Counted from the stretch's first letter, positions 1 to 19,100 are shown. The stretch: DNA of 64,000 nucleotides from Escherichia coli (GCF_030013205.1 NZ_CP122648.1), one strand, 5' to 3'. Made by a program: numbers and translations. The notes: generated from the letters alone by a model not told the origin.

Positions 1-99
1 CAACGCGGCACGTTGCGGTTCAAAGGCCCAGTCGACTTTATTCTGCGGAATATCGTGAGACTCCGGCAGTGCGTAAGCCTGTAATTTTGGAATAGCCAT
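1..99 (-). CDS. entB: EntB isochorismatase / aryl carrier protein, first 33 codons only (gene runs off the window start)
   Basis: Reverse complement of 1-99 translates MAIPKLQAYALPESHDIPQNKVDWAFEPQRAAL with ATG at 97-99; lies directly downstream of entE as in the entCEBA operon. Confidence 0.85.
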   Translation of the reverse strand, partial: MAIPKLQAYALPESHDIPQNKVDWAFEPQRAAL

Positions 100-1732: not shown

Positions 1733-2908
<1,176 letters not shown>

Positions 2909-2936
2909 ATCATCCTCCACAAAATGATAAAGGATT

Positions 2937-2957
2937 TAATAATGATTATCATTTATA
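2937..2957. promoter_or_regulatory. Fur box in the divergent entC / fepB promoter region
   Basis: Sequence aataatgattatcatttat closely matches the Fur consensus GATAATGATAATCATTATC; sits between divergent iron-regulated genes. Confidence 0.75.
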
Positions 2958-3096
2958 TTTTCGGTAGCTAACCTAAAAGCAAACGCGCACTATGTCAACT
3001 CTTGAGGTAACGCAATCTGCAACTCGGGGTTGCATCTGGTTGTGGTTACAATGAAAATGAGAAGCATTAACTTCATTAATAACAGGAAGCTGACTT

Positions 3097-4053
3097 GTGA
3101 GACTCGCCCCGCTCTACCGCAACGCCCTTCTATTAACAGGACTTTTGCTTTCAGGAATAGTCGCAGTTCAGGCCGCCGACTGGCCGCGTCAGATTACTGA
3201 CAGCCGGGGCACTCATACCCTGGAAAGCCAGCCGCAGCGTATTGTTTCCACCAGCGTCACCCTGACCGGCTCACTGCTGGCGATTGATGCTCCGGTGATC
3301 GCCAGCGGCGCGACCACGCCAAATAACCGCGTCGCGGATGACCAGGGCTTTTTACGCCAGTGGAGCAAGGTGGCGAAAGAACGCAAACTGCAACGGCTCT
3401 ATATCGGCGAACCGAGTGCAGAAGCCGTTGCCGCGCAAATGCCGGATCTGATTTTAATTAGCGCAACTGGCGGGGATTCGGCGCTGGCGCTGTATGATCA
3501 GCTTTCCACCATAGCCCCGACATTAATCATCAATTACGACGACAAAAGCTGGCAGGCGCTGTTAACGCAACTTGGCGAAATTACCGGGCATGAGAAACAA
3601 GCGGCAGAGCGGATTGCACAGTTTGATAAGCAACTGGCGGCGGCGAAAGAGCAAATCAAATTACCGCCGCAGCCGGTCACTGCCATTGTCTATACCGCCG
3701 CTGCACACAGTGCCAATCTCTGGACGCCGGAATCAGCACAAGGGCAGATGCTGGAACAACTCGGCTTTACGTTGGCGAAATTGCCCGCAGGGTTAAACGC
3801 CAGCCAAAGCCAGGGCAAACGCCATGACATCATTCAGCTTGGTGGAGAAAATCTGGCTGCAGGGTTAAATGGCGAGTCACTATTCCTGTTCGCCGGTGAT
3901 CAGAAAGATGCCGATGCGATTTATGCTAATCCGCTGCTCGCGCACCTGCCTGCAGTACAAAACAAGCAGGTTTATGCGCTGGGAACCGAGACGTTCCGTC
4001 TGGATTACTACAGCGCCATGCAAGTGCTGGAACGGCTTAAGGCGCTGTTTTAA
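3097..4053 (+). CDS. fepB: periplasmic ferric-enterobactin binding protein FepB
   Basis: 318-aa ORF with GTG start at 3097, signal peptide (…[10 protein letters not shown]) and recognised FepB sequence. Confidence 0.95.
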
Positions 4054-4056
4054 GCA

Positions 4057-5307
4057 TTAACTGTCGGACGCTGTCACCTGCGGCGGCGTCTGGCGAAAAC
4101 GCCGCAACTCCACCAGCACCAGCAATAACAACACGCCGATAATCAACAAACCAAAACCGCTCGCGCTTGCGGAAGCAACCGGTGTCATCATCGCGCCCAA
4201 ACCGCCCAGCAGCGCCGCGCCTATGGCATCACCCGTCACGTTTTGTGCCGTCCACAAACCGTTAATCCGCCCTAACATCGCTTCCGGGGTTTGCGTTTGC
4301 AGCATTGTATATTGCAGCAACGAACTAACCGCGCTCAGCCAGCCGAACAGCGCCAGACAAACCACGCCTAAAATCCACATCGGCATCAAGCCAAACAGCC
4401 CAATGGCGAGGAACGATCCCAGCGTGGAGAGCAGCATCAATAACCCTGGTCGCGCGCTATGTGCCAGCTTCCCGCTGGTTAACGCGCCAATAGCCGCGCC
4501 GAGCGGGATCGCCGCATAGAGAAAACCAATCTGTGCCGCCGACATCTGCCAGTTGTCAGCCAGCGCCGGATACAGTACCCGCACCGCGCTCGCCATCGTC
4601 AATAAACCACCCAACAGCGCAATCCCTCCTACCAGCGGGCTGGCGAGCAGAAAACGAAATCCTGCCAGTAATGATTTCAACGGATGCTCACGCGGCTGCG
4701 GTGGCGGTGGCAACGCCGGAAGGCTTAACAACGGTAGCAAGGTAATAAACGTGCCCGCCGCCGCCAGCCCGTAGTTCCAGGCTACGCCGCCAGTCGCCAG
4801 CAGTAAACCACCAATCATAGGCGAAATCACCGATCCCAGGCGCACAGTCAACATGGTGATCGCCCCGGCCTGCATTAAGTTTTCACGCCCTACCAGTGCA
4901 GGTGTCGCCGCCAGTAGCGCCGTAACGCCAAGTGATGCGAAAAAACCATCCCATAAACCAAGTAAATAGATTGCCAACAATGACGGCTCCGGCAGCAGTG
5001 CATTAAGGCACAGTCCAATGAAGCCAATGCCACAGGTGCCGCGCGCCAGCAAAATCACTTTTTTGCGTTCATAGCGATCCGCCAGCACACCGCCGACCAT
5101 CAGGCCAACAAACATCGCGCCGCCGGTCAGCGTCACCGAAAGCCCCACCTGCCAGGTAGAATGCGTCATCATCTGGATCTGCACCGGCACCGCGACGCCG
5201 AGCAAACCCAGAGACACAATTGAGATAAAACGAGCGAGGAATACTGCACGAAACGCCGGGTGCGTTTTCAACAGGCTGAGGTTAAGCAGCCAGGATTGTT
5301 TATTCAT
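4057..5307 (-). CDS. entS: enterobactin exporter EntS (MFS transporter)
   Basis: 416-aa polytopic membrane [30 protein letters not shown]… recognised as EntS/YbdA. Confidence 0.95.
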
Positions 5308-5380
5308 TACAATGCCTTGCCATCAAATATTTTAAATACCTATTTTTAGGCTGCACATGCTAACATATCCAAATAAGATC

Positions 5381-5405
5381 GATAACGATAATTAATTTCA
5401 TTATC
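5381..5405. promoter_or_regulatory. Fur box in the divergent entS / fepD promoter region
   Basis: gataacgataattaatttcattatc contains overlapping GATAAT/ATTATC Fur hexamers. Confidence 0.7.
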
Positions 5406-5417
5406 ATGGAAGTTCGT

Positions 5418-6422
5418 ATGTCTGGTTCTATTGCCGTGACACGCGCCATTGCCGTGCCCGGATTGCTGTTATTACTGATTATCGCGACGGCATTAAGCCT
5501 GCTCATTGGGGCAAAATCACTCCCCGCTTTCGTAGTGCTGGAGGCCCTCTCCGGCACCTGCCAGAGCGCCGACTGCACCATCGTGCTCGACGCGCGACTG
5601 CCGCGCACCCTTGCCGGTTTACTAGCCGGCGGTGCGCTTGGCCTTGCCGGGGCGTTGATGCAAACCCTCACCCGAAACCCACTTGCCGACCCCGGCTTGC
5701 TTGGTGTGAACGCCGGAGCCAGCTTTGCCATTGTGCTGGGTGCGGCGCTGTTTGGTTACTCATCCGCGCAGGAACAACTGGCGATGGCCTTCGCCGGGGC
5801 GCTGGTGGCCTCATTGATTGTTGCCTTTACCGGCAGCCAGGGCGGCGGGCAGTTAAGTCCGGTGCGTTTAACCCTGGCGGGCGTGGCACTGGCGGCGGTG
5901 CTGGAAGGGCTGACCAGCGGCATCGCCCTGCTTAATCCTGACGTCTACGATCAGTTGCGTTTCTGGCAAGCCGGTTCGCTGGATATTCGCAATCTACATA
6001 CCTTAAAAGTGGTGCTGATCCCGGTGCTGATCGCCGGAGCAACCGCACTATTACTGAGCCGCGCGCTGAACAGTTTAAGCCTCGGCAGTGACACCGCGAC
6101 GGCGCTGGGTAGTCGCGTGGCGCGCACACAGTTGATTGGTCTGCTGGCGATTACCGTGCTTTGTGGTAGTGCGACGGCGGTAGTTGGCCCGATTGCCTTT
6201 ATTGGCCTGATGATGCCGCACATGGCGCGCTGGCTGGTAGGTGCCGATCATCGCTGGTCGCTGCCCGTCACGCTACTCGCCACCCCTGCCCTGCTGCTGT
6301 TTGCCGATATCATCGGGCGGGTGATTGTGCCCGGCGAACTGCGCGTTTCTATAGTCAGTGCCTTTATTGGCGCACCGGTGCTGATCTTCCTCGTGCGACG
6401 TAAAACGCGAGGTGGCGCATGA
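5418..6422 (+). CDS. fepD: ferric-enterobactin ABC transporter permease FepD
   Basis: ORF 5406..6422; start chosen at MSGSIAVTR (334 aa); FecCD-family permease sequence. Confidence 0.93.
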   Translation: MSGSIAVTRAIAVPGLLLLLIIATALSLLIGAKSLPAFVVLEALSGTCQSADCTIVLDARLPRTLAGLLAGGALGLAGALMQTLTRNPLADPGLLGVNAGASFAIVLGAALFGYSSAQEQLAMAFAGALVASLIVAFTGSQGGGQLSPVRLTLAGVALAAVLEGLTSGIALLNPDVYDQLRFWQAGSLDIRNLHTLKVVLIPVLIAGATALLLSRALNSLSLGSDTATALGSRVARTQLIGLLAITVLCGSATAVVGPIAFIGLMMPHMARWLVGADHRWSLPVTLLATPALLLFADIIGRVIVPGELRVSIVSAFIGAPVLIFLVRRKTRGGA

Positions 6423-7411
6423 TTTACGTCTCTCGCCGATTAATCATCACCTGTTTGCTGCTAATTACCGCCTGTGTGGTTGCAGGTATCTGGGGATTAC
6501 GCAGCGGTACCGTCACGCTGGAAACCTCGCAGGTATTCGCCGCGCTGATGGGCGATGCGCCGCGCAGTATGACGATGGTGGTCACCGAATGGCGTTTACC
6601 ACGCGTGCTGATGGCGCTGTTGATTGGCGCGGCACTGGGCGTCAGCGGCGCGATTTTTCAGTCGCTGATGCGTAACCCGCTCGGTAGCCCTGACGTAATG
6701 GGCTTTAACACCGGGGCGTGGAGCGGCGTGCTGGTGGCGATGGTGCTGTTTGGTCAGGACCTGACGGCTATCGCGCTGGCAGCAATGGCGGGCGGCATTG
6801 TCACCTCGCTGCTGGTCTGGCTGCTCGCCTGGCGTAACGGCATCGACACCTTTCGGTTGATTATTATTGGTATCGGCGTTCGCGCCATGCTGGTGGCCTT
6901 TAATACCTGGCTGTTGCTGAAAGCGTCTTTAGAAACGGCGCTAACAGCGGGTTTGTGGAATGCCGGATCGCTCAACGGCCTGACGTGGGCAAAAACCTCG
7001 CCCTCCGCACCCATCATTATATTGATGCTCATTGCCGCCGCCTTGCTGGTGCGGCGGATGCGCTTGCTGGAGATGGGTGATGATACCGCATGTGCGCTGG
7101 GCGTCAGCGTCGAACGTTCGCGTCTGTTAATGATGCTGGTTGCAGTGGTGCTTACCGCTGCGGCAACGGCGCTTGCCGGGCCGATTTCTTTTATTGCTTT
7201 AGTCGCGCCGCACATTGCCCGACGCATTAGCGGCACCGTTCGCTGGGGGCTGACCCAGGCGGCGCTGTGCGGGGCGCTGTTACTGCTGGCGGCCGATCTC
7301 TGCGCCCAACAACTGTTTATGCCGTATCAACTTCCGGTTGGCGTCGTTACCGTCAGCCTCGGTGGTATTTACCTTATCGTCTTGTTAATTCAGGAGTCTC
7401 GCATAAAATGA
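6419..7411 (+). CDS. fepG: ferric-enterobactin ABC transporter permease FepG
   Basis: 330-aa ORF MIYVSRRLIITCLLLITACV…; start overlaps the fepD stop by 4 nt. Confidence 0.93.
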   Translation: MIYVSRRLIITCLLLITACVVAGIWGLRSGTVTLETSQVFAALMGDAPRSMTMVVTEWRLPRVLMALLIGAALGVSGAIFQSLMRNPLGSPDVMGFNTGAWSGVLVAMVLFGQDLTAIALAAMAGGIVTSLLVWLLAWRNGIDTFRLIIIGIGVRAMLVAFNTWLLLKASLETALTAGLWNAGSLNGLTWAKTSPSAPIIILMLIAAALLVRRMRLLEMGDDTACALGVSVERSRLLMMLVAVVLTAAATALAGPISFIALVAPHIARRISGTVRWGLTQAALCGALLLLAADLCAQQLFMPYQLPVGVVTVSLGGIYLIVLLIQESRIK

Positions 7412-8223
7412 CCGAATCAGTAGCCCGTTTGCGCGGCGAACAGTTAACCCTCGGATATGGCAAATATACCGTTGCAGAAAATCTGACTGTAGAAATACCT
7501 GATGGTCACTTCACGGCAATTATCGGGCCAAATGGCTGCGGTAAATCCACGTTACTGCGTACCTTAAGCCGCCTGATGACGCCTGCTCACGGGCATGTCT
7601 GGCTGGATGGTGAGCACATTCAACATTACGCCAGTAAAGAAGTTGCCCGGCGGATTGGCCTGTTGGCGCAAAACGCCACCACGCCGGGAGATATCACCGT
7701 GCAGGAGCTGGTGGCGCGTGGGCGTTACCCGCATCAACCGCTGTTTACCCGCTGGCGCAAAGAAGATGAAGAAGCGGTAACGAAAGCGATGCAGGCCACG
7801 GGAATCACTCATCTGGCAGGTCAAAGCGTGGATACCCTTTCTGGCGGACAACGCCAGCGAGCGTGGATCGCGATGGTGCTGGCCCAGGAAACGGCAATTA
7901 TGCTGCTCGATGAACCAACGACCTGGCTGGATATCAGTCATCAGATTGATCTCCTGGAACTGTTAAGCGAACTGAACCGCGAGAAAGGCTATACCCTGGC
8001 GGCGGTGCTGCACGATCTTAATCAGGCCTGTCGTTACGCCAGCCATTTGATTGCATTGCGGGAAGGGAAAATTGTTGCTCAGGGAGCGCCGAAGGAGATT
8101 GTCACTGCTGAATTGATCGAGCGCATTTATGGTCTGCGCTGCATGATTATTGACGTTCCGGTAGCCGGAACTCCGCTCGTGGTGCCGCTCGGACGAACGG
8201 CACCTTCAACTGCCAAGATTTAA
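7408..8223 (+). CDS. fepC: ferric-enterobactin ABC transporter ATPase FepC
   Basis: Start at MTESVARLRGEQ inside ORF 7267..8223 (271 aa); Walker A GPNGCGKST and ABC signature LSGGQRQR present. Confidence 0.95.
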   Translation: MTESVARLRGEQLTLGYGKYTVAENLTVEIPDGHFTAIIGPNGCGKSTLLRTLSRLMTPAHGHVWLDGEHIQHYASKEVARRIGLLAQNATTPGDITVQELVARGRYPHQPLFTRWRKEDEEAVTKAMQATGITHLAGQSVDTLSGGQRQRAWIAMVLAQETAIMLLDEPTTWLDISHQIDLLELLSELNREKGYTLAAVLHDLNQACRYASHLIALREGKIVAQGAPKEIVTAELIERIYGLRCMIIDVPVAGTPLVVPLGRTAPSTAKI

Positions 8224-9353
8224 ACTAAGTGCTCTTCCATCACGGCATCCTGTTTTCTGGATGCCATCGCATGGCGCAACAGCACGCCACCACAAGCCAC
8301 CATCCCGCCGATCATCGCAGAAAGGATCACAATAATCGCCTTACCCGGACCGTCTTTTTTCACTGGCAATGACGGGCTTAACTGATATTTAAACGGCGTA
8401 AAATTCACATCGTTGATATTTGCTTTTGTTAGCTGCTCAACAAGATACTGGCGATTACGTAATTCACCGTTCAGTTCCGCAACGTCAGTAACCGCTTTTT
8501 CAATTTCCAGTTTGCGTTCAATACCGTCTGCGCCGAGAGAAATAGAGAAATCGGGGTCGTCTTTAACAGCCTGACCATTACTGTAAACGGGCTTTTTAAT
8601 TCCTGCCGCGTTAGCAATGTCGAGTGAATAATTGAGGCGCTGAATGTTTGCATCAAGTTGATTTTTCATTTTAATGCGGTCCTGAGCCAGTTTTTCTTTT
8701 TCAAACTGGGTTTTAAGCTCCAGTCTATTGCGCTCATTTTCTATCGACTCTTTCACCACCAGAGCAGAGATATAATCGATATACCCGCTCAAAACGGTTT
8801 GCGCCTCTTCATTGGTTGGCGCGGTAAAACTTAGCGTCCAGGAGGTATAAAGTGACGGTTCATCTTTTTTCTTACTGGCATTGTCATCAACCGCTTTCAT
8901 TTTTTCGCTCAATGCGACAATTGCGCGATGCAAATCCAGTTCGTCGATTTTCGCCTCTTTTAATTGGTCCATCACATAAGGTGTTGAGCGCAGGTACTCT
9001 TCCAGCAAGCTAACCGACTGAAACTTCTTGATAAACAGGTTAAATGCTTCTGTACGATCAATTTTGATATCCAGATCCAGCACTCGAAGCTTAGTGAATG
9101 TTTTCTCCAGCTCTTGCCACTGAACAGGTTCTGGAGGCGTGACAACCGCCGCGCTGGTCCATTTTTGCGGCAGGATGAAAGAGATCAGCAAGCCTGCGCA
9201 GGCAAACGCAAAAATGACCGCCATGACCGTTTTTTTGGCCCGCCATAAAACTGCGATTAGATTAAGTAAATCAATTTCATTATTACTGGGCGACGCCAGA
9301 GGATACTCAGGAAAATGAGCGTCACTTCCCTGTTTAATATTCAGTGATGACAT
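8220..9353 (-). CDS. fepE: polysaccharide co-polymerase FepE (O-antigen chain length regulator, Wzz family)
   Basis: ORF 8220..9404; start chosen at MSSLNIKQGSDAHF (377 aa). Confidence 0.93.
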   Translation of the reverse strand: MSSLNIKQGSDAHFPEYPLASPSNNEIDLLNLIAVLWRAKKTVMAVIFAFACAGLLISFILPQKWTSAAVVTPPEPVQWQELEKTFTKLRVLDLDIKIDRTEAFNLFIKKFQSVSLLEEYLRSTPYVMDQLKEAKIDELDLHRAIVALSEKMKAVDDNASKKKDEPSLYTSWTLSFTAPTNEEAQTVLSGYIDYISALVVKESIENERNRLELKTQFEKEKLAQDRIKMKNQLDANIQRLNYSLDIANAAGIKKPVYSNGQAVKDDPDFSISLGADGIERKLEIEKAVTDVAELNGELRNRQYLVEQLTKANINDVNFTPFKYQLSPSLPVKKDGPGKAIIVILSAMIGGMVACGGVLLRHAMASRKQDAVMEEHLV

Positions 9354-9567
9354 GGGGTATAACCTGAAAATGAGTCCAATAGGGGAAATCTCCACGGCGC
9401 TCACTTTACCAGTTGGTGATAATTATCCGAAGCTGAAGTTTGTAAATTCCTTCCACTGAATGCAACATTCACTCTATTTAAGAGAAATATTCATCAAACC
9501 TATAAATCAAACAAATAAAAAACCCATAATTATTTTCTGTAATTATGGGTTTATAGATAATGTTAAT

Positions 9568-12500
9568 TTATCTGTTTAGCGTTGCGCGAATAATCGGCCC
9601 AATTTTTTCAAATGCCCCTGGAGAGATAATATCCACATGCGCACAATCCTGACGATAGATATCCAGCTCGGCTATCCACGGCGACCAGACGCGTTCGGGA
9701 TTCATACCTTCCTGAAGCGTGCGTTCAGCAACAAACAGCGTCGCTTTACCGTCAAACGGTACGCTATGAGCAGTCGTCAGCAGGCGCACAGCATCAGCGT
9801 AGTTGCCTTCAATGGTGGTAAACAACTCCGTTGAAGTACTTCCCTGCTGTGCCGCCAGGAAGGCCTCGCGCTCGCGGTTAATCTCCGCCAGCACTTCCGG
9901 GTCCAGGCCATTAGCCTCTTTTTCCTGCCAGTTTTGCGTTTCTGGCGGCCAGGTATCCAGCAAGCCAAGAAATGCCACCTGTTCGCCACGGGCACGCAGC
10001 CGCGCCGCAATACCCTGCGCCAGCGTACCGCCCAGCGAATAACCCAGCAGGTAATAAGGGCCGTGCGGTTGATGCTCAAGTAACGTTGCCAGATGCGCTT
10101 CGCAGACTTCATCCAGATTTGCCGCGGTCTGCATGGGGCCATTGGGGCGCGGCGACTGAATGCCGATAATCGACCATTGTGGATCGAGATAACGCGAGAG
10201 CACGCTGAACTGCCAGGCAAAACCGGACGCAGGATGGAAACAAAACAGCGTCGGGCCATTACCTTCACGCAACGGCAGAATGGTTTCGAATCCCATGCGC
10301 CGGGAGCTGTCTTCTTCACCATCAATAATCGTTGCCAGTTTGGCGACAGTTGACGCGACCATCACCTGCCCCGGCGTCACCTGGCGGGTAAACTGCCGAC
10401 TTAACTGCGCAGCCAGTTTCATTGCCAGTAGCGAATGACCGCCAAGCGCGAAGAAATCAGCATCGGCATCCTGCACGTCACAACCCAGCAACGACGAGAA
10501 TGCCGCGGCGATAATCGTTTCACTGCCCGCTTTCGGCGCACGCCCCGGCGCTTGTGCCTTCAGTTCAGGCAACGGTAAGGCTTTGCGATCCAGCTTGCCG
10601 TTGGCGCTAAGCGGCAACTGCGGAAGTTGCAGCAGAACCACGGGCACCATATGCGGTGGCAATGTTTCGCGCAACTGCGCCTGCAATGCAGTGGTATCCA
10701 ACGGCAGGCCTGATTGCGACACCAGATACCCAACCAACTGACGCGCATCGCCTCCCGTTGCGGCAGCCTGGTTAATAACGCAGGCGTGGGTCACGGCCTG
10801 TTCAACGTCCGGCAGCGCCTGCATCACGCGATCGATTTCGCCCAGTTCGATACGCTGCCCGCGAATTTTTAGCTGATCGTCACTGCGCCCGAGGTACTCC
10901 ACCGCGCCGTTATCCAGCCAGCGGGCAACGTCTCCGGTACGGTACATCCGTTCGCCAGGGGCAAAAGGATTGGCAATAAAGCGGCTGGCGGTCAGATCGG
11001 GTCGTCCGAGATAGCCCTGCGCCAGTTGTATGCCAGTGAGATAGAGATCTCCCGCCACACCCGGCGGCACCGGATGCATCATCGCATCAAGAATACGCAG
11101 GCCCGTATTCCACACCGGATAACCAATCGGCACACTGCTGCCGCGCACCTGAGCCAGTTCCTCGCCAAAAGCCGGATACCAGCTGACATCTACCGCCGCT
11201 TCCGTCGGGCCATATAGATTATGCAACGGCACGCCGGTTAACTGTTGCCATTCGCGGCATAAATCAGCCGGTAAGGCCTCACCACTACAGAAAACCTGTT
11301 TTAACGTCGCGCAATTCTGGCGAGCGGTTTGCGGAGTCAGCGATGCAACAAATGCCGCCAGCATCGACGGCACAAAGTGCGTGGTCGTTACGCCATATTC
11401 GGCAAAGAATTGCTGCATAGCGAGCGGGTCGCGGTGCGCTTCCGGTTCAGCCATCACCAGTTTAGCCCCGGCAATAAACGGCCAGAAAAACTCCCACACC
11501 GAGACATCAAAACTGCACGGCGTTTTTTGGGCAACGACATCTTCGCCTGTAAGCGGGTAGTGGTTTTGCATCCAAAGCAGGCGGTTAACGATAGCCGTCT
11601 GCCCGACCATTACCCCTTTCGGCCTGCCGGTGGAGCCAGAGGTAAAGATGATATAAGCCGTGTGGTGCGGTTGTGAAAGTTGCAGCGGCGCACTGCCCTG
11701 CGGTGTAAGCGGGGCGTTATAGCAAAGGCTGGTTAAATCTGGAACATCGGCAAAGCGCGGCAGTTGATCGTCGGTGGTGATTAACAGCGACGGACGCGCA
11801 TCTTCCAGCATCATTTTCAGGCGATCGTCCGGATAGCCGGTATCCAGCGGTAACCAGGCCGCACCTGTTTCAACAATCGCATGTAGCGCCAGAGTCAAAA
11901 ATACCGAGCGCGGTAGCGCCACCGCCACGCTGTCGCCTGGTTTAACGCCGCGCTCACGCAGCAGATTCGCCAGCGCCACCACCTGCTCGCGCATTTCCAG
12001 ATAGCTGAACTGGTAACGCGCATCTGCCAGCGCCGGAGCATCCGGTGTTTTTGCCGCTTGTTCTGCCACCAGCGCGCTCAGCGTGGTTTCTGGAATCTCA
12101 ACCTGAGTGGCGTTGATCTGCGCTAACTGCGCATACTCACCTGGCAGCATAATATCGACATCGCCGCACAACAGCGCAGGATCCGCGGCGAACTGGGCAA
12201 TCAGCATTTTCAGGCGTTCAGCGTGGTGAATTAACGTTGGCTCATCGTAACGCTGTTTATTGGCGAGGATCTCAATACTCAAATCACCGTGTTCATCCGG
12301 GAACAGGGCCAGTTCAAGGTCATTAACCGGACCGGTTGCCAGGGTATGGGTTCGCGTCTGAACACCAGGAATATCCAGTTGGTAATCAAATACCTTGATA
12401 TTGAGTACCGGACCGAACAGCGGTTCCTCTCCTGCCGCTCGCCCGCTGTCACGGACAATTTGTTCGGCATCGTAACGTTGATGACGACGCATTTTTTTCA

Positions 12501-13449
12501 GTTGTGCTGCCAGTCGGGTTGCCAGTTCCGGCAGCGTTTCTTGCGCCTCAATATGAATACCCAACGGCAAAACGTTGAGCACGGGTCCGGTAGCCGTCAG
12601 CGCCGCCGAGCCCAGTCGACGCATAAAGATAAATCCGGCAGCGTAGTCCATGCGATTGCACAATCGCCCCAGCCACAAGGCTGCCAACGCAAGGGCTAAA
12701 TCGGTACGCTGCACACCTGAAAGTTGCGTAGCCAGCTGGCGGAATTCCCCGTCAGTAAATTCCAGTTTCAGGCGAAGAATATCTGCCGAAGCGCTGCGCC
12801 CCGGTAAAGGTGCCGGAGAAAGTGACGCGGGCGGTGGCAGTTGACGACGCTGTTCCGCCCAGAATGCCGCATCACGCTGCCAGGCTTCACTTTCGCGGTA
12901 CTGCTGATACTCTTCCACTACATCAGCGAAAGGCGTAAACGGCGAAGCAGGCGTTGGTTCGCCACGCAGCCATGCGCAGTAAATATTGGCGATCTGGCGG
13001 GTAATGGCCGGGAAACTGAAGCCATCGACCAGCAAATGGTGATAACGCTGATACCAGTACCAGCGGTTATCCGCCACCAGTATCAACTGATGAAAGACCA
13101 GTGGTTTACCGCTATCGACGCGCAGATCTTGTTGCAATTCCGCCTGCATTAATGCCCGCGCAGTACCGTGCGGATCAATGTTGGTTCGCAGGTCGATAAT
13201 TTCTGGCAGTTCGAACGTCAGCGCATCATCGACCCACTGCCAGACTTCGCCGTTATCTTCCGTAAAACGCATCCGCAGCGTATCTGCTTGCGCTAATCCG
13301 GCAACCACCGCGCGGGCCAGTAATGGCGCATCAACCTCTCCGGTTAACTCAACGTAATGCGCCACGCTCCAGGCGGAGGGTAAATCCGACAGTTTTTCTG
13401 CCATCCAGATGCCGGGCTGTGCAGCGACCAAAGGTAAATGCTGGCTCAT
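9568..13449 (-). CDS. entF: enterobactin non-ribosomal peptide synthetase EntF (C-A-PCP-TE)
   Basis: ORF 9568..13587; start chosen at MSQHLPLVAAQPGIWMAEKL (1293 aa); adenylation motif TSGSTGRPKG and thioesterase GYSLGG seen. Confidence 0.95.
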   Translation of the reverse strand: MSQHLPLVAAQPGIWMAEKLSDLPSAWSVAHYVELTGEVDAPLLARAVVAGLAQADTLRMRFTEDNGEVWQWVDDALTFELPEIIDLRTNIDPHGTARALMQAELQQDLRVDSGKPLVFHQLILVADNRWYWYQRYHHLLVDGFSFPAITRQIANIYCAWLRGEPTPASPFTPFADVVEEYQQYRESEAWQRDAAFWAEQRRQLPPPASLSPAPLPGRSASADILRLKLEFTDGEFRQLATQLSGVQRTDLALALAALWLGRLCNRMDYAAGFIFMRRLGSAALTATGPVLNVLPLGIHIEAQETLPELATRLAAQLKKMRRHQRYDAEQIVRDSGRAAGEEPLFGPVLNIKVFDYQLDIPGVQTRTHTLATGPVNDLELALFPDEHGDLSIEILANKQRYDEPTLIHHAERLKMLIAQFAADPALLCGDVDIMLPGEYAQLAQINATQVEIPETTLSALVAEQAAKTPDAPALADARYQFSYLEMREQVVALANLLRERGVKPGDSVAVALPRSVFLTLALHAIVETGAAWLPLDTGYPDDRLKMMLEDARPSLLITTDDQLPRFADVPDLTSLCYNAPLTPQGSAPLQLSQPHHTAYIIFTSGSTGRPKGVMVGQTAIVNRLLWMQNHYPLTGEDVVAQKTPCSFDVSVWEFFWPFIAGAKLVMAEPEAHRDPLAMQQFFAEYGVTTTHFVPSMLAAFVASLTPQTARQNCATLKQVFCSGEALPADLCREWQQLTGVPLHNLYGPTEAAVDVSWYPAFGEELAQVRGSSVPIGYPVWNTGLRILDAMMHPVPPGVAGDLYLTGIQLAQGYLGRPDLTASRFIANPFAPGERMYRTGDVARWLDNGAVEYLGRSDDQLKIRGQRIELGEIDRVMQALPDVEQAVTHACVINQAAATGGDARQLVGYLVSQSGLPLDTTALQAQLRETLPPHMVPVVLLQLPQLPLSANGKLDRKALPLPELKAQAPGRAPKAGSETIIAAAFSSLLGCDVQDADADFFALGGHSLLAMKLAAQLSRQFTRQVTPGQVMVASTVAKLATIIDGEEDSSRRMGFETILPLREGNGPTLFCFHPASGFAWQFSVLSRYLDPQWSIIGIQSPRPNGPMQTAANLDEVCEAHLATLLEHQPHGPYYLLGYSLGGTLAQGIAARLRARGEQVAFLGLLDTWPPETQNWQEKEANGLDPEVLAEINREREAFLAAQQGSTSTELFTTIEGNYADAVRLLTTAHSVPFDGKATLFVAERTLQEGMNPERVWSPWIAELDIYRQDCAHVDIISPGAFEKIGPIIRATLNR

Positions 13450-13664
13450 TGCGCCTCCTGCAACTGGGTGAAATTCGACGGTGTCAGAGTACGCCAGTGG
13501 GCTTCCAGCCACTGCTGGCAGGACGCCTGTGACTGCGGCTGACACACAACGTCCCAGCCTGCCGGTAAGGCGCATTGTTGCGGCCACAGACTGAATTGCC
13601 CCTGCGCATTGCGCAAAATGTAAAACGCTCCCTGCGGATCATCGAAGGGATTACTGAATGCCAT
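13446..13664 (-). CDS. ybdZ: MbtH-like protein YbdZ
   Basis: 72-aa product MAFSNPFDDPQGAFYILRNAQGQFSLWP…; overlaps the entF start by 4 nt. Confidence 0.93.
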   Translation of the reverse strand: MAFSNPFDDPQGAFYILRNAQGQFSLWPQQCALPAGWDVVCQPQSQASCQQWLEAHWRTLTPSNFTQLQEAQ

Positions 13665-13666
13665 AT

Positions 13667-14869
13667 TCAACTCCTGTCATGGAAAAGTGGTTGCCAGAGG
13701 TCGATTAGCCCCTGCATCAAGCCACCGCGCCAACAAAGCGCATCATGTCCGCCGTCAACCTGACGCCAGAAAATGGATTCTTTTATGGGGTGTAATTGCG
13801 CATACAGCGCCTGATTGGCCCGCATGATCATCGGCTCGCGAATACCCGCTTCCAGCACAATGCGCAGACCTTCGGCGCTAACTTCACCAGCTTTAAGTTG
13901 CTCAAGTAACACGCCCTCTTGCTGCCCGCCCCGATGCGGCCACCAGTACGATCCTGACTGGCTTAATACACAGCCAAAGCGTTCAGGCCAGTTTAGTCCG
14001 GCATACAGCGCAGAAAGCCCACCAAAACTCTGCCCGGCGACCACGGTGCGATCGGCGCGATCGCTAAAAGGGGCAATAGCTTTCACCAGGGGTAATAACT
14101 CTTGCTGTACTGCCAGCCAGAAATCCGCATTACACGGCAGTTCGTGGGCGCGGTGCGGGGTGTCGATAGCGTCGATCAACACATACACGGCGGGAGGAAG
14201 TTGCTGACGATGGGTCAGCGAAGTTAGCGCAGGCCAGACGGGCATACTCTGCGCCCAAAATTCGCCATCAAGCAAAACTGCCAGCGGGCGTTCTTCTGCT
14301 GTTGCATCGCCGGTGGTAAAAATCCATACACGGCGTGAATTTTTCAGCCGCTCACTTTTCCAGATAATTTCTTTGACAGGCGTTTCTGGCGCTTGCGGAC
14401 AATCCCATCCCGGTTGCAGAGGCGCTTGCGGCATTTCGAGTGCAGAAACAGCGTGCCCTCGCCCGCCTTTCCAGCTTTGTGGATTCAGCGGATCGGCTAT
14501 CGCCTGGGGTAATAGTTTTCGCCAGCCTTCACGTAATTCGAGGCGATCGGGGGATGGTGCAGAAAAAATGTCATCGCGTTCGGTGGGAATAAAACAGTAG
14601 CTGCCGCGCCAGTTGGCATTAAGTTGTGTCGTCCACTGCCAGACGTTGGTACCTGCAATTCGCTGCATCGACTGGGGCTGGCTGTTCTGATGGTGATCGG
14701 TCACACCAGTGATGTAGACCCATACGCGCTTTATCGTCGAGTATTCTTCAGAACCTTGGGGATCACGCCACCAGAAAGTGACCTCAAACATTTCGTCATT
14801 CAGACGCTGCCATTCCGGGCCATGTTTCGACTGCCACCAGCTCTCACTTCCTACTTTTAACGCCGTCAC
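13667..14869 (-). CDS. fes: enterochelin esterase Fes
   Basis: 400-aa ORF MTALKVGSESWWQSKHGPEWQRLNDEMFEV…; esterase GQSFGG motif. Confidence 0.95.
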   Translation of the reverse strand: MTALKVGSESWWQSKHGPEWQRLNDEMFEVTFWWRDPQGSEEYSTIKRVWVYITGVTDHHQNSQPQSMQRIAGTNVWQWTTQLNANWRGSYCFIPTERDDIFSAPSPDRLELREGWRKLLPQAIADPLNPQSWKGGRGHAVSALEMPQAPLQPGWDCPQAPETPVKEIIWKSERLKNSRRVWIFTTGDATAEERPLAVLLDGEFWAQSMPVWPALTSLTHRQQLPPAVYVLIDAIDTPHRAHELPCNADFWLAVQQELLPLVKAIAPFSDRADRTVVAGQSFGGLSALYAGLNWPERFGCVLSQSGSYWWPHRGGQQEGVLLEQLKAGEVSAEGLRIVLEAGIREPMIMRANQALYAQLHPIKESIFWRQVDGGHDALCWRGGLMQGLIDLWQPLFHDRS

Positions 14870-14914
14870 ACCATAACCCCATGTTTACTGTGCAATTTTT
14901 CATTGATTGCAGAA

Positions 14915-14957
14915 ATATATTGATAATATTATTGATAACTATTTGCATTTGCAATAG
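14915..14957. promoter_or_regulatory. overlapping Fur boxes in the divergent fes / fepA promoter region
   Basis: attgataatattattgataactatttgcatttgcaatag carries tandem GATAAT…ATTATC-like hexamers. Confidence 0.75.
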
Positions 14958-15111
14958 CGTAATGGCGCGCCGTGGGAAGCGCGGACATTAATTAACCAAC
15001 TGCACTACGTGTCTTTCAGGATCAAAGGTTTTCGCGGTAGCGGGATGCGTCGTGTTGATGACGACCATGCCCGACAGTTGCAATTCGTGGCAAAAATGCA
15101 GGAATAAAACA

Positions 15112-17352
15112 ATGAACAAGAAGATTCATTCCCTGGCCTTGTTGGTCAATCTGGGGATTTATGGGGTAGCACAGGCACAAGAGCCAACCGATACTCCTGT
15201 TTCACATGACGATACCATTGTCGTTACCGCCGCCGAGCAGAACTTGCAAGCGCCTGGCGTTTCGACCATCACCGCAGATGAAATCCGCAAAAACCCCGTT
15301 GCCCGCGATGTGTCGGAGATCATCCGTACCATGCCAGGCGTTAACCTGACCGGTAACTCCACCAGTGGTCAGCGTGGGAATAACCGACAGATTGATATTC
15401 GCGGTATGGGTCCGGAAAACACGCTGATTTTGATTGACGGCAAGCCGGTAAGCAGCCGTAACTCGGTGCGCCAGGGCTGGCGTGGCGAGCGCGATACCCG
15501 TGGTGATACCTCCTGGGTGCCACCTGAAATGATTGAACGTATTGAAGTTCTGCGTGGTCCGGCAGCGGCGCGTTATGGCAACGGCGCGGCGGGCGGCGTG
15601 GTTAACATCATCACCAAAAAAGGCAGCGGCGAGTGGCACGGCTCCTGGGACGCATATTTCAATGCGCCAGAACATAAAGAGGAAGGTGCCACCAAACGCA
15701 CTAACTTTAGCCTCACCGGTCCGCTGGGCGACGAATTCAGCTTCCGCTTGTATGGCAACCTCGACAAAACTCAGGCTGACGCGTGGGATATCAACCAGGG
15801 CCATCAGTCCGCGCGTGCCGGAACGTATGCCACGACGTTACCAGCCGGGCGCGAAGGGGTAATTAACAAAGATATTAATGGCGTGGTGCGCTGGGACTTC
15901 GCGCCTCTGCAATCACTCGAACTGGAAGCGGGCTACAGCCGCCAGGGTAACCTGTATGCGGGCGATACCCAGAACACCAACTCTGACTCCTATACCCGCT
16001 CGAAATATGGCGATGAAACCAACCGTCTGTATCGCCAGAACTACTCGCTGACATGGAACGGCGGCTGGGATAACGGCGTGACCACCAGCAACTGGGTGCA
16101 GTACGAACACACCCGTAACTCGCGTATTCCGGAAGGTCTGGCGGGCGGTACCGAAGGGAAATTTAACGAAAAAGCGACACAGGATTTCGTCGATATCGAT
16201 CTCGATGATGTGATGCTGCACAGCGAAGTTAACCTGCCGATTGATTTCCTCGTTAACCAGACGCTGACGCTGGGTACGGAGTGGAATCAGCAACGGATGA
16301 AGGACTTGAGTTCCAATACCCAGGCGCTGACCGGGACGAATACCGGCGGTGCTATTGATGGTGTGAGTGCCACCGACCGTAGCCCGTATTCAAAAGCAGA
16401 AATTTTCTCGCTGTTTGCCGAAAACAACATGGAGCTGACTGACAGCACCATCGTAACGCCGGGGCTGCGTTTCGATCATCACAGCATTGTTGGCAATAAC
16501 TGGAGTCCGGCGCTGAACATCTCGCAAGGTTTAGGCGATGACTTCACTCTGAAAATGGGCATTGCCCGTGCTTATAAAGCGCCGAGTCTGTACCAGACTA
16601 ACCCGAACTACATTCTCTACAGTAAAGGTCAGGGCTGCTATGCCAGCGCGGGCGGCTGCTATCTGCAAGGTAATGATGACCTGAAAGCGGAAACCAGCAT
16701 CAACAAAGAGATTGGTCTGGAGTTCAAACGCGACGGCTGGCTGGCGGGCGTCACCTGGTTCCGTAACGATTATCGCAATAAGATTGAAGCGGGCTATGTG
16801 GCTGTAGGGCAAAACGCAGTCGGCACCGATCTCTATCAGTGGGATAACGTACCGAAAGCGGTGGTTGAAGGTCTGGAAGGATCGTTAAACGTACCGGTTA
16901 GCGAAACGGTGATGTGGACCAATAACATCACTTATATGCTGAAGAGTGAAAACAAAACCACGGGCGACCGTTTGTCGATCATCCCGGAGTATACGTTGAA
17001 CTCAACGCTGAGCTGGCAGGCACGGGAAGATTTGTCGATGCAAACAACCTTCACCTGGTACGGCAAGCAGCAGCCGAAGAAGTACAACTATAAAGGTCAG
17101 CCAGCGGTTGGACCGGAAACCAAAGAAATCAGCCCGTACAGCATTGTTGGCCTGAGCGCGACCTGGGATGTGACGAAGAATGTCAGTCTGACCGGCGGCG
17201 TGGACAACCTGTTCGACAAACGTTTGTGGCGTGCAGGTAATGCCCAGACCACGGGCGATCTGGCAGGAGCCAACTATATCGCCGGTGCCGGGGCGTATAC
17301 CTATAACGAGCCGGGACGTACGTGGTATATGAGCATTAATACTCACTTTTGA
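15112..17352 (+). CDS. fepA: TonB-dependent ferric-enterobactin outer membrane receptor FepA
   Basis: ORF 15052..17352; start chosen at MNKKIHSLALLVNLGIYGVAQA (746 aa); C-terminal aromatic residue (…SINTHF). Confidence 0.95.
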   Translation: MNKKIHSLALLVNLGIYGVAQAQEPTDTPVSHDDTIVVTAAEQNLQAPGVSTITADEIRKNPVARDVSEIIRTMPGVNLTGNSTSGQRGNNRQIDIRGMGPENTLILIDGKPVSSRNSVRQGWRGERDTRGDTSWVPPEMIERIEVLRGPAAARYGNGAAGGVVNIITKKGSGEWHGSWDAYFNAPEHKEEGATKRTNFSLTGPLGDEFSFRLYGNLDKTQADAWDINQGHQSARAGTYATTLPAGREGVINKDINGVVRWDFAPLQSLELEAGYSRQGNLYAGDTQNTNSDSYTRSKYGDETNRLYRQNYSLTWNGGWDNGVTTSNWVQYEHTRNSRIPEGLAGGTEGKFNEKATQDFVDIDLDDVMLHSEVNLPIDFLVNQTLTLGTEWNQQRMKDLSSNTQALTGTNTGGAIDGVSATDRSPYSKAEIFSLFAENNMELTDSTIVTPGLRFDHHSIVGNNWSPALNISQGLGDDFTLKMGIARAYKAPSLYQTNPNYILYSKGQGCYASAGGCYLQGNDDLKAETSINKEIGLEFKRDGWLAGVTWFRNDYRNKIEAGYVAVGQNAVGTDLYQWDNVPKAVVEGLEGSLNVPVSETVMWTNNITYMLKSENKTTGDRLSIIPEYTLNSTLSWQAREDLSMQTTFTWYGKQQPKKYNYKGQPAVGPETKEISPYSIVGLSATWDVTKNVSLTGGVDNLFDKRLWRAGNAQTTGDLAGANYIAGAGAYTYNEPGRTWYMSINTHF

Positions 17353-17390: not shown

Positions 17391-17490
17391 TGCCGGATGC
17401 GGCGTGAACGCCTTATCCGGCCTACAAAAATCTTGCCAATTCAATATATTGCAGGACCACGTAGGCCTGATAAGCGTAGCGCATCAGGCA
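17391..17490. repeat. REP / BIME-type extragenic palindromic repeats between fepA and entD
   Basis: tgccggatgcggcgtgaacgccttatccggcctac and inverted gtaggcctgataagcgtagcgcatcaggca are typical REP units. Confidence 0.7.
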
Positions 17491-17526: not shown

Positions 17527-18147
17527 ATGAAAACTACGCATACCGCCCTCCCCTTTGCCGGACATACGCTGCATTTTGTTAAGTTCGATCCGGCGAGTTT
17601 TTGTGAGCAGGATTTACTCTGGCTGCCACACTACGCGCAACTGCAACACGCTGGACGTAAACGTAAAACAGAGCATTTAGCCGGACGGATCGCTGCAGTT
17701 TATGCGCTGCGGGAATATGGCTATAAATGTGTGCCCGCAATCGGCGAGCTACGCCAACCTGTGTGGCCTGCGGGGGTATACGGCAGCATTAGTCACTGTG
17801 GGACTACGGCATTAGCCGTGGTATCTCGTCAACCAATTGGCATTGATATCGAAGAGATTTTCTCTGTACAAACCGCAAGAGAATTGACAAACAACATTAT
17901 TACACCAGCAGAACACGAGCGACTCGCAGAATGCGGTTTAACCTTTTCTCTGGCGCTGACACTGGCATTTTCCGCCAAAGAGAGCGCATTTAAGGCATCG
18001 GAGAGACAAACTGATGCAGGATTTCTGGATTATCAGATAATTAGCTTGAATAAACAGCAGATCATCATTCGACTAGAGGATGAGCAGTTTGCTGTGCACT
18101 GGCAGATAAAAGAAAAGATAGTCATAACGCTGTGCCAACACGATTAA
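17527..18147 (+). CDS. entD: phosphopantetheinyl transferase EntD
   Basis: ORF 17377..18147; start chosen at MKTTHTALPFAGHTLHFVKF (206 aa); the upstream part of the ORF lies inside the REP repeats; alternative start MVDM at 17518. Confidence 0.9.
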   Translation: MKTTHTALPFAGHTLHFVKFDPASFCEQDLLWLPHYAQLQHAGRKRKTEHLAGRIAAVYALREYGYKCVPAIGELRQPVWPAGVYGSISHCGTTALAVVSRQPIGIDIEEIFSVQTARELTNNIITPAEHERLAECGLTFSLALTLAFSAKESAFKASERQTDAGFLDYQIISLNKQQIIIRLEDEQFAVHWQIKEKIVITLCQHD

Positions 18148-18268
18148 TTGACAATACCCGGAGCGATTCGCCCGCAGCCAATGCTGACTGCGGGCGAAAG
18201 TGTAAAGCAGGTGCCTTACTACTCTGACCTGACAACCGGATATGCGGGGATTACTCCCCGCACAACGG

Positions 18269-18421
18269 CTACTTCTTCGGTTCGTAAGCGAGAACAGCCT
18301 TAAACTCAATATTACGTTCCTTCACCGTAAACTCACACAGCGAGTCTCCGACCAGAAGCGTAAATCCCAGCACCGTTAAACACAGCACTATGACTGCCAC
18401 AAGGGCATATTTCGTCAGCAT
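18269..18421 (-). CDS. hokE: Hok-family type I toxin (HokE-like), copy 1
   Basis: 50-aa product [50 protein letters not shown]. Confidence 0.88.
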
Positions 18422-18566
18422 GTTTATATTGCCTCCATGCGAAGAAGGGACTACCATCCGAGTTGTTGAGGTTCGGAGTGGCAGCCCCAGGATTGATAGA
18501 AATATCTCCTGGGGCTTCATCTTTCCAGACCTCAGAGTTAACCTGAAACCGGAAAGCTTCAGGCAC
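18333..18566 (-). CDS. mok-like overlapping reading frame (modulator of killing), copy 1
   Basis: 77-codon [35 protein letters not shown]… starting upstream of hok and ending inside it in a different frame, as expected for mok. Confidence 0.5.
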
Positions 18567-18600
18567 CCGCTGTTATCTTACCCTTCCTTAGCAAAATAAC
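18530..18600 (+). ncRNA. candidate Sok antisense RNA, copy 1 (position approximate)
   Basis: Inferred from hok/sok architecture only: antisense to the mok translation-initiation region; no promoter or terminator mapped. Confidence 0.25.
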
Positions 18601-18771
18601 TGTTTATTTATACAGCAAGTCCTGTTTCGGACTTCTGTTGGCAACACTCGTTATTGCTCGTAAAACGAAATCGCCCGCAGCCATCACTGACCACGGGCGA
18701 AAGTGTAAAGCAGGTGCCTTACCACCCTGACCTGACAACCGGATATGCGGGGATTACTCCCCGCACAACGG

Positions 18772-18924
18772 CTACTTCTTCGGTTCGTAAGCGAGAACAG
18801 CCTTAAACTCAATATTACGTTCCTTCACCGTAAACTCACACAGCGAGTCTCCGACTAGAAGCGTAAATCCCAGTACCGTCAAACACAGCACTATGACTGC
18901 CACAAGGGCATATTTCGTCAGCAT
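18772..18924 (-). CDS. Hok-family type I toxin, copy 2 (identical protein)
   Basis: Same 50-aa Hok sequence; here the upstream mok frame is fused in frame, giving a 98-codon ORF 18772..19068. Confidence 0.8.
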
Positions 18925-19029
18925 GTTTATATTGCCTCCATGCGAAGAAGGGACTACCATCCAAATTGTCTGGTTTGGAGTGGCAGCCCCAGGGTTGATA
19001 GAAATATCTCCTGGGGCTTCATCTTTCCA

Positions 19030-19100
19030 GACCTCAGAGTTAACCTGAAACCGGAAAGCTTCAGGCACCCGCCGTTATCTTACCCTTCTTCAGCAAAATA
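19030..19100 (+). ncRNA. candidate Sok antisense RNA, copy 2 (position approximate)
   Basis: Inferred by analogy with copy 1. Confidence 0.2.

Follow-up and report, generated by a model that had tools for sequence, protein, structure and literature searches.

An Escherichia coli enterobactin cluster carries four Fur operators in three intergenic regions, two of them shared between divergent promoters

Four Fur operators are distributed over three intergenic regions in the enterobactin cluster of the Escherichia coli DNA analyzed here, a stretch of 64,000 nucleotides that we call the window. The arrangement is already known and is that of an ordinary E. coli enterobactin locus. These sites are almost certainly the Fur operators controlling the genes for enterobactin synthesis and transport. 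Occupancy by Fur, the positions of the transcription starts, and repression by iron are inferred for this strain from K-12 data, namely ChIP-seq and transcriptomes (PMC10219339) together with footprints and gel shifts (PMC2189734). The preliminary description had proposed three bidirectional Fur-box promoters. This applies to the fes/fepA and entS/fepD regions, each of which contains one shared site cluster, but not to the entC/fepB region, which contains two clusters serving separate promoters.

The window is a segment of E. coli chromosome with the gene order entE-entC / fepB / entS / fepDGC / fepE / entF-ybdZ-fes / fepA-entD. Its sequence identity is 99.9-100% with swine ETEC-type chromosomes and 96.7% with K-12, relative to which the ent/fep cluster runs in reverse orientation. 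Gene coordinates were taken from the RefSeq annotation of a 99.9% identical genome. Intact reading frames for entE (113-1723) and entC (1733-2908) lie on the minus strand, which also carries entS (4057-5307), fepE (8220-9353), entF (9568-13449), ybdZ (13446-13664), and fes (13667-14869). The plus strand encodes fepB (3097-4053), fepD (5418-6422), fepG (6419-7411), fepC (7408-8223), fepA (15112-17352), and entD (17527-18147). These 13 complete ent/fep genes all have their K-12 lengths, but the claim of an intact locus holds only in part for the window: entB, on the minus strand, begins at position 99 and runs off the left edge, so that most of this gene and all of entA and entH fall outside. 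The fur gene itself is also outside the window.

We constructed a 21-mer Fur weight matrix from 19 ChIP-supported E. coli sites outside the ent cluster (Table S6, PMC10219339) and scanned both strands of the 64-kb window (63,980 positions). The best match was on the entC side (2934-2954, 25.5 bits), followed by fes/fepA (14930-14950, 21.5 bits), entS/fepD (5383-5403, 21.0 bits), a second entC register (2940-2960, 19.4 bits), and the fepB side (3049-3069, 14.6 bits). Together, the four operators filled ranks 1 to 5, with no ent site in the training set. The training sites themselves scored 10.3 to 29.0 bits, a span that includes the 14.6 to 25.5 bits of the ent operators. Each of the intervals originally singled out as Fur-box-like (2937-2957, 5381-5405, and 14915-14957) holds a core site scoring far above chance, and these three sites account for ranks 1-4 of the ~64,000 positions. 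When the window was shuffled 200 times with dinucleotides preserved, the highest score per shuffle averaged 14.6 bits (sd 2.2); three matches of at least 20 bits were observed compared to 0.02 expected. The observed score was reached in none of 2000 local shuffles for each intergenic region and in one of 2000 for the fepB-proximal segment. Taken together, the whole-window and local shuffles exclude a chance origin. The fepB operator is weak, its 14.6 bits being equal to the mean whole-window shuffle maximum and thus attained by roughly every second such shuffle. Other matrix matches, for example at 63189 (14.1 bits), 59618, and 60867, were rejected as chance-level, with ~0.8 matches of at least 14 bits occurring per shuffle.

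In an accompanying census, we counted matches to the classical Fur consensus 19-mer (GATAATGATWATCATTATC). The entS/fepD region reached 16/19 at 5387-5405 and 15/19 at 5381-5399, both entC (2938-2956) and fepB (3053-3071) reached 15/19, and fes/fepA reached 13/19 at 14934-14952. A count of 13/19 is attained at about 30 further positions of the window, and the fes/fepA site would therefore fail a naive consensus-mismatch threshold; its support rests on matrix score and footprint orthology, not on the classical consensus. Allowing three or fewer mismatches recovered the entS/fepD site alone. This threshold is too strict for real Fur sites and was therefore replaced by the matrix and the match-count census. 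No Fur-like site was found in the fepA-entD and entD-hokE spacers. A weak Fur site for fepE has been listed at -137, corresponding to 9476-9496 of the window (Table S6, PMC10219339); the best match in the fepE-entF intergenic region scored 8.4 bits (p = 0.33 against shuffles), and a fifth Fur region upstream of fepE was, on this sequence evidence, not counted as an operator.

We then transferred the coordinates of the K-12 DNase I footprints (Table 3, PMC2189734) to the window through gapless alignments. The footprints map to 2914-2962, 3047-3077, 5368-5436, and 14914-14961, with matrix matches inside each. The fes/fepA footprint is 100% identical to that of K-12, those of entS/fepD and entC differ by one substitution each (the former at its edge), and 23 of the 31 bp of the fepB footprint are as in K-12, the remaining 8 bp being replaced. 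We took the offset from NC_000913.2 to NC_000913.3 coordinates to be +777, a value corroborated solely by the fit of footprints to matches. The three originally proposed sites lie inside K-12 footprint equivalents and their match centers (2944, 5393, and 14940) agree to the base with ChIP-seq-derived motif centers (Table S6, PMC10219339). Overlapping Fur sites in K-12 form arrays with 6-bp shifts, to which several Fur dimers can bind (PMC2189734). Such arrays are also present in the window at entC (2922/2934/2940), entS/fepD (5377/5383/5389), and fes/fepA (14918/14924/14930); the fepB array comprises registers at 3049 and 3055, the latter weak. Sigma-70-like promoter hexamers overlap the Fur sites with the spacing expected, and the start positions used here are the K-12 values. 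In K-12, fepA, fes, entC, fepD, entS, fepB, and fepE are classed as Fur-repressed (Table S6, PMC10219339), and all ent/fep genes are significantly down-regulated in the comparisons shown in the transcriptome supplementary tables (PMC10219339).

Two of the intergenic regions have a single site cluster lying less than 40 bp from both predicted starts, as expected of a shared operator. The fes/fepA operator (14914-14961, assigned to neither strand) contains registers at 14930-14950 (21.5 bits), 14924-14944 (11.1 bits), and 14918-14938 (10.9 bits). Its center, 14940, falls at -172 relative to fepA and -71 relative to fes, matching the published values (Table S6, PMC10219339), and the intergenic region is found in 5414 of 5426 E. 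coli genomes. A consensus scan identified fepA promoter-like hexamers on the plus strand (TTGATT and TATTAT, 18-bp spacer; 14903-14932), which imply a fepA start near 14939-14940, at the center of the Fur site; fes would start near 14931 on the minus strand. The Fur center in K-12 is at +1 and -9 from the fepA and fes starts, respectively (Table S6, PMC10219339). The entS/fepDGC operator (5368-5436, likewise unstranded) contains registers at 5383-5403 (21.0 bits), 5377-5397 (13.6 bits), and 5389-5409 (8.7 bits). Its center, 5393, is at -25 from fepD and -86 from entS, again as published (Table S6, PMC10219339), and each of the 14 loci from other species that extend this far has a site of at least 21 bits. 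Here the fepD promoter-like hexamers (TCGATA and TATCAT, 17-bp spacer; 5379-5407, plus strand; consensus scan) lie inside the Fur operator and imply a start near 5415; the K-12 center is at -22 from the fepD start (Table S6, PMC10219339). For entS, a start near 5354 is predicted.

The entC/fepB region contains two site clusters ~110 bp apart, with centers at ~2944 and 3059-3065. The first is the operator of entC (entCEBAH), at 2914-2962 on the minus strand, identified through both its K-12 footprint equivalent and the matrix scan. It comprises three overlapping registers (2934-2954, 25.5 bits; 2940-2960, 19.4 bits; 2922-2942, 14.0 bits), and its motif center is at -36 from the entC ATG, equal to the reported value (Table S6, PMC10219339). 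The entC promoter was read from the sequence as a -35 element TTGACA (2993-2998) and a -10 element TAGGTT (2970-2975) with a 17-bp spacer on the minus strand, a probable hexamer assignment that would place the start near 2962-2963 and the Fur box at ~+8 to +28, downstream of the start. This agrees with the K-12 Fur center at +18 from the entC start (Table S6, PMC10219339) and with the description of Fur box 2 as downstream of its +1/-10/-35 (PMC5020551). Across 73 distinct Enterobacteriaceae sequences, conservation is 90-100% for the operator and 100% for the -35 TTGACA, and it extends to the -10 block; the box has a median score of 23.9 bits across 90 species.

The fepB gene encodes the periplasmic ferric-enterobactin binding protein. 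Its Fur operator (3047-3077, plus strand) was located by matrix, classical 19-mer, and footprint mapping, and the box within it (3049-3071, ~110 bp from the entC box) was absent from the preliminary list. The second register, 3055-3075, scores 8.0 bits in the window compared to 17.0 in K-12 because bases 3070-3077 differ; hence, fepB might be under looser Fur control in this strain. An exact copy of the fepB 18-mer TGAAAATGAGAAGCATTA is present in ~95 Enterobacteriaceae genomes, though these cross-species loci were retrieved by that exact 18-mer and conservation of the fepB box in the set is by construction. A putative fepB promoter, also read from the sequence, has a -35 element TTGCAT (3030-3035) and a -10 element GAAAAT (3053-3058) with a 17-bp spacer on the plus strand; its -35 block is conserved across genera (73 distinct sequences). 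The predicted start near 3066 fits with the K-12 Fur center at -1 from the fepB start (Table S6, PMC10219339), and Fur box 1 has been described as overlapping its -10/-35 (PMC5020551). The 5' leader would span 3066-3096 on the plus strand (~31 nt), with a Shine-Dalgarno sequence AGGAAG at 3084-3089 and a GTG start at 3097. Thus, entC and fepB each have their own promoter, with -35 elements (2993-2998 and 3030-3035) back to back.

We considered two readings under which the sites would be fewer or of a different nature. One is that there is a single shared bidirectional Fur box per region, such that entC and fepB would both be repressed from the 2937-2957 box. In its favor, no other box of the region scores nearly as high as that of entC. 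The entC box, however, has its center at 2944, ~120 bp upstream of the predicted fepB start (~3066), and fepB has a box of its own that overlaps its -10. Footprinting of this region in K-12 showed 'two distinctly protected regions' (PMC2189734); the same region was later described as having 'two non-overlapping Fur boxes', each controlling one direction in reporter plasmids, and its promoter-operators have been reused as vectors (PMC5020551). Moreover, each of the two boxes and each of the two promoters is conserved in its own right: the 73 distinct entC-fepB regions of other Enterobacteriaceae are most conserved at the entC Fur box, the entC -10/-35, the fepB -35, and the Shine-Dalgarno sequence, while the spacer is variable. 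A single box governing both directions is thus highly improbable, and the box cited in the preliminary description serves entC rather than a shared bidirectional operator. Less probable still is that AT-rich promoter DNA gave rise to the matches incidentally, without their being specific Fur operators, the Fur consensus resembling -10 and UP-element-like sequence. Local dinucleotide shuffles retain AT-richness but fail to reach the scores, and the AT-rich fepE-entF region (33% G+C) is at chance level. The sites are also orthologous to footprinted K-12 DNA and conserved across genera, whereas the adjoining AT-rich spacer is not. These observations outweigh the low G+C content of the three intergenic regions (30-42%), the overlap of matrix matches with -10-like hexamers, and the modest consensus match of fes/fepA.

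With four operators favored over three, it can still be asked whether that of fepB is functional. The change at 3070-3077 may have degraded it, leaving fepB weakly or not regulated by Fur and only three operators effective. The K-12 fepB oligonucleotide binds two Fur dimers (Lavrrar and McIntosh, tabulated in PMC2189734), and the register scoring 17.0 bits there falls to 8.0 in the window; fepB is also one of the more weakly regulated ent genes in K-12 itself (log2 -1.6 to -2.4 compared to -3.7 to -4.9 for entC; PMC10219339). However, we regard such a loss as unlikely. The 14.6-bit register, which overlies the -10, is intact and conserved exactly, and conservation across genera amounts to 60-80% even at bases 3070-3076. 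Furthermore, the short form is found in 2678 E. coli genomes, with the long form in 2721, and short spacing (~45 nt) occurs in most other genera. A strain-specific deletion was therefore rejected as the origin of the short leader, which, being common to about half of E. coli and most other Enterobacteriaceae, is the ancestral state. A tentative possibility is that control of fepB in K-12, with its ~217-nt leader, HPGQ/boxC-like hairpin, and two-register operator, was derived via an insertion exactly at the fepB start. The window would represent the ancestral form (~31 nt, single strong Fur register), and measurable differences between the two alleles might exist in how fepB is repressed by Fur and controlled post-transcriptionally.

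A model consistent with K-12 experiments is that, when iron is plentiful, Fe2+-Fur dimers would bind overlapping 6-bp-shifted registers of these AT-rich arrays, preventing transcription. Under iron scarcity, Fur would be released and six units would fire, namely entCEBAH, fepB, entS, fepDGC, fes-ybdZ-entF, and fepA-entD. At fes/fepA, a single operator would act on both divergent promoters, covering the fepA start and lying just upstream of the fes start. At entS/fepD, a single operator would likewise cover the fepD -35 to -10 and the entS -35 region. Two independent back-to-back units are predicted at entC/fepB, one with its operator at ~+8 to +28 of entC and the other with a weaker operator over the fepB -10 and start.

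For the window, these findings serve as a sanity check alone, in that a simple matrix scan recovers the Fur operators as its top matches. For annotation pipelines and readers alike, the number of Fur operators to look for in the enterobactin cluster is four instead of three. In addition, what has been described for the fepB leader and operator in K-12 does not carry over to about half of E. coli strains, whose leader is the short ancestral one.

Comparison with K-12 shows close agreement in the two shared regions. The fes-fepA intergenic regions are equal in length (242 bp), with the footprinted 48 bp unchanged and a single substitution between the two genes, at 15007, that falls outside the operator. 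The fepDGC-entS (ybdA) regions are also equal in length (110 bp) and share an identical core operator, with two substitutions outside the core, at 5345 and 5430. There are no notable differences in either case. Both regions reportedly form bidirectional promoter-operators in K-12, the former as described by Hunt, Pettis and McIntosh in 1994 and Escolar et al. in 1998, and the latter by Christoffersen et al. in 2001 and Lavrrar et al. in 2002.

The fepB-entC region, said to have been described by Brickman, Ozenberger and McIntosh in 1990 as divergent promoter-operator regions, likewise has a pair of separate Fur boxes and a pair of promoters standing back to back in K-12. The entC side is identical except for two substitutions (2934 and 2966), one of which lifts the matrix score from 22.1 bits in K-12 to 25.5 in the window, and the fepB -35, -10, and inner Fur register are also identical. 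In contrast, the intergenic length is 188 bp in the window compared to 374 bp in K-12, where a 186-bp insertion with an HPGQ/boxC-like repeat, at the equivalent of 3069/3070, begins exactly at the fepB start region; HPGQ no. 17 has been placed between fepB and entC (PMC5100583). The locus therefore departs from the K-12 reference in a fepB leader that is 186 bp shorter and in the outer 8 bp of the fepB footprint. More broadly, the Fur operators of fhuA, cirA, fecA, fiu, tonB, fhuF, and others have the same 19- to 21-bp AT-rich palindromic motif, likewise in 6-bp-shifted registers overlapping core promoters. Unlike these, two ent operators out of four each act on a pair of divergent promoters simultaneously, and that of entC is downstream of the transcription start.

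The ent and fep genes of the window make up the K-12 enterobactin cluster in reversed orientation. Gene order in window coordinates follows the RefSeq record of a genome with 99.9% identity. On this basis, entB (1-99, minus strand) runs off the left edge and is followed by entE (113-1723, minus), entC (1733-2908, minus), fepB (3097-4053, plus), entS (4057-5307, minus), fepD (5418-6422, plus), fepG and then fepC (both plus, the latter ending at 8223), fepE (8220-9353, minus), entF (9568-13449, minus), ybdZ (13446-13664, minus), fes (13667-14869, minus), fepA (15112-17352, plus) and entD (17527-18147, plus). The preliminary description had called the enterobactin locus intact; all complete cluster genes indeed have their K-12 lengths, but because the left edge cuts off most of entB and excludes entA and entH entirely, the window alone is insufficient for that statement. 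Positions 2700-5600 are 100% identical to swine-derived E. coli chromosomes (K_EC180, O139:H1, and ETEC strains) and are present in 5417 of 5426 complete E. coli genomes.

We scanned both strands of all 64 kb with a 21-column Fur weight matrix built from 19 sites of non-ent genes in a ChIP-seq study (Table S6, PMC10219339), i.e., mntH, fhuA, yqjH, fecA, cirA, exbB, sufA, yncE, fiu, tonB, fecI, yojI, fhuE, bfd, ydeN, gpmA, yncD, ybaN, and ydiE; since the ent sites were left out of training, the test is non-circular. The four top-ranking matches fell in the three divergent intergenic regions where Fur boxes had been proposed: entC (2934-2954, 25.5 bits), fes/fepA (14930-14950, 21.5 bits), entS/fepD (5383-5403, 21.0 bits), and a second, overlapping register at entC (2940-2960, 19.4 bits). 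The fifth was at fepB (3049-3069, 14.6 bits). Across 200 dinucleotide shuffles of the whole window, the best score averaged 14.6 bits (sd 2.2), and 0.02 matches of at least 20 bits were expected compared to three observed. When the AT-rich intergenic regions were shuffled singly, the observed score was reached in none of 2000 trials each, and in 1 of 2000 for the fepB-proximal segment.

Agreement with the classical Fur 19-mer was 16/19 and 15/19 at entS/fepD and 15/19 each at the entC and fepB sites, and nowhere else in the window reached 15/19. The fes/fepA site matched at only 13/19, a value equaled by about 30 unrelated places in the window, so a naive consensus count would wrongly place it below threshold; under the matrix, no proposed region scored below threshold and fes/fepA passed clearly.

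For comparison with mapped Fur sites, K-12 footprint coordinates were moved to NC_000913.3 by +777, which we take to be the correct offset. This value fits the quoted (PMC5020551) and annotated entC/fepB start coordinates. By pairwise alignment to K-12, the DNase I footprints (Table 3, PMC2189734) of fepA-fes (611868-611915), fepB (623939-623969), entC (624054-624102), and fepD-entS (621394-621462) map to window positions 14914-14961, 3047-3077, 2914-2962, and 5368-5436, respectively. These intervals contain the matrix matches and the originally proposed positions (2937-2957, 5381-5405, and 14915-14957). As an independent check, published motif centers (entC -36, fepA -172, fes -71, fepD -25, entS -86; Table S6, PMC10219339) are the exact centers of the matrix matches at 2944, 14940, and 5393. 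Identity to K-12 is 100% over the fes/fepA footprint and complete over the entS/fepD operator core; the entC footprint carries one substitution, at 2934. This substitution changes AAAG in K-12 to AAAT (minus strand) at the edge of the Fur box and gives the site 25.5 bits by the matrix, compared to 22.1 in K-12.

Promoter hexamers were assigned from sequence and published motif-to-start distances. At fes/fepA, a promoter-like hexamer pair, TTGATT and TATTAT with an 18-bp spacer (14903-14932), suggests a fepA start near 14940; since this is the center of the Fur site and the fes start is 9 bp from that center (Table S6, PMC10219339), one operator would cover both promoters. At entS/fepD, TCGATA and TATCAT (17-bp spacer, 5379-5407) lie within the operator, about 39 bp separate the Fur center from the entS start on the side opposite to fepD, and the two genes share a single operator. 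The published distances and the TATCAT -10 place the fepD start at about 5415, some 3 nt before the annotated ATG (5418), and another in-frame ATG (5406) lies upstream of this predicted start; unless either the start codon or the start site differs, the fepD mRNA would have almost no leader.

The entC/fepB region is organized differently from the single shared operators of the other two. The minus-strand entC promoter has a perfect TTGACA -35 (2993-2998) and a TAGGTT -10 (2970-2975), and its predicted start near 2962 would place the strong entC Fur array downstream of the start. For fepB, with hexamers TTGCAT (3030-3035) and GAAAAT (3053-3058), a separate, weaker Fur box appears to cover its own -10 and start. 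This layout matches earlier work: Brickman et al. described "two distinctly protected regions" (relayed by PMC2189734), and PMC5020551 made use of "two non-overlapping Fur boxes". The phrase "three bidirectional Fur-box promoters", used in the preliminary description, is standard shorthand (PMC4911079); it holds for fes/fepA and entS/fepD but misses the fepB operator, and the accurate operator count is four.

The 18-mer TGAAAATGAGAAGCATTA, spanning the -10 and Fur box of fepB, has exact matches in 111 stretches of a species-representative genome collection, and entC and/or fepB adjoin it in about 95 loci, by organism name from Escherichia, Citrobacter, Salmonella, Enterobacter, Kluyvera, Kosakonia, Lelliottia, Leclercia, Atlantibacter, Cedecea, and related genera. 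In the 90 loci whose entC start could be identified, the entC-proximal Fur site had a median of 23.9 bits, and most had 142-145 bp between the entC start and the fepB box and 42-46 nt between that box and the fepB start. Among 73 distinct entC-fepB sequences, conservation peaked at the entC Fur box (2938-2960), entC -10/-35, fepB -35, Shine-Dalgarno, and start codon, and the spacers between varied freely, a profile that reads as a classical phylogenetic footprint; the fepB 18-mer itself served to retrieve the loci, which makes its conservation in this set a given. The entS/fepD site scored at least 21 bits in all 14 loci reaching that far. The fes-fepA spacer was found in 5414 of 5426 E. coli genomes, with at least 95% identity in all but two.

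Elsewhere, a weak Fur motif is reported at -137 upstream of fepE in K-12 (ChIP-seq, Table S6, PMC10219339); its equivalent in the fepE-entF spacer (9354-9567; e.g., 9476-9496) is present, but its score of about 8 bits does not exceed that of shuffled sequence (p = 0.33). The fepA-entD spacer has an Rfam match to the sRNA ES036 (CssrF; 17427-17468, 42.2 bits against a gathering score of 37.6). Two tandem copies of the hokE/sokE toxin-antitoxin locus are present (18168-18636 and 18671-19138; 503 bp apart, 95-96% identical), each with a full Rfam sok match (18413-18568 and 18916-19070), whereas the near-identical K_EC180 genome and K-12 each have one copy; the IS186 between hokE and entD in K-12 is absent from the window. 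Other features noted are a match to Rfam IS009 and a tRNA (52745-52944 and 58675-58748). The K_EC180 counterpart of the rest of the window, from which the window differs by further indels, holds the cus operon, truncated T6SS vgrG/toxin genes with an ISEc1 element, nfrAB, ompT, a prophage remnant beside tRNA-Arg, and sfm fimbrial genes.

Studies from 1990 to 2003 established Fur control of the enterobactin promoters, ChIP-seq later re-confirmed it, and we find nothing new in it here: the observation is confirmed and its interpretation, the established one, is essentially right with two corrections, i.e., that entC/fepB has two operators and that the window edge truncates the cluster. A mildly informative by-product is that K-12 is an atypical strain as to the fepB leader. 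The entC-fepB spacer is 188 bp in the window compared to 374 bp in K-12, where 186 extra bases (18539-18724 of the K-12 locus) directly follow ...GAGAAGCATTA at the fepB transcription start; the window lacks them (junction 3069/3070; corresponding leader 3066-3096). It follows that the leader is about 31 nt rather than about 217 nt, and that the outer fepB Fur register scores 8.0 bits rather than 17.0; the inner register is unchanged at 14.6 bits. The insertion holds a G/C-rich hairpin repeat (HPGQ/boxC-like; median six places per genome), catalogued between fepB and entC as hairpin-G-quadruplex element no. 17 (PMC5100583). Complete E. coli genomes split about evenly between forms with (2721) and without the insertion (2678, including 536, EC958, and O157:H7). 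Escherichia whittamii has a 101-bp version (5360-5530 of its locus, L081) with the same flanks but lacking the central ~85 bp, which argues that the insertion is old; it either expanded internally in K-12 or was deleted internally in E. whittamii. Since E. albertii, Salmonella, Citrobacter, Enterobacter, and others have the short spacing and window-like sequence, the short form of the window appears ancestral and the K-12 form derived.
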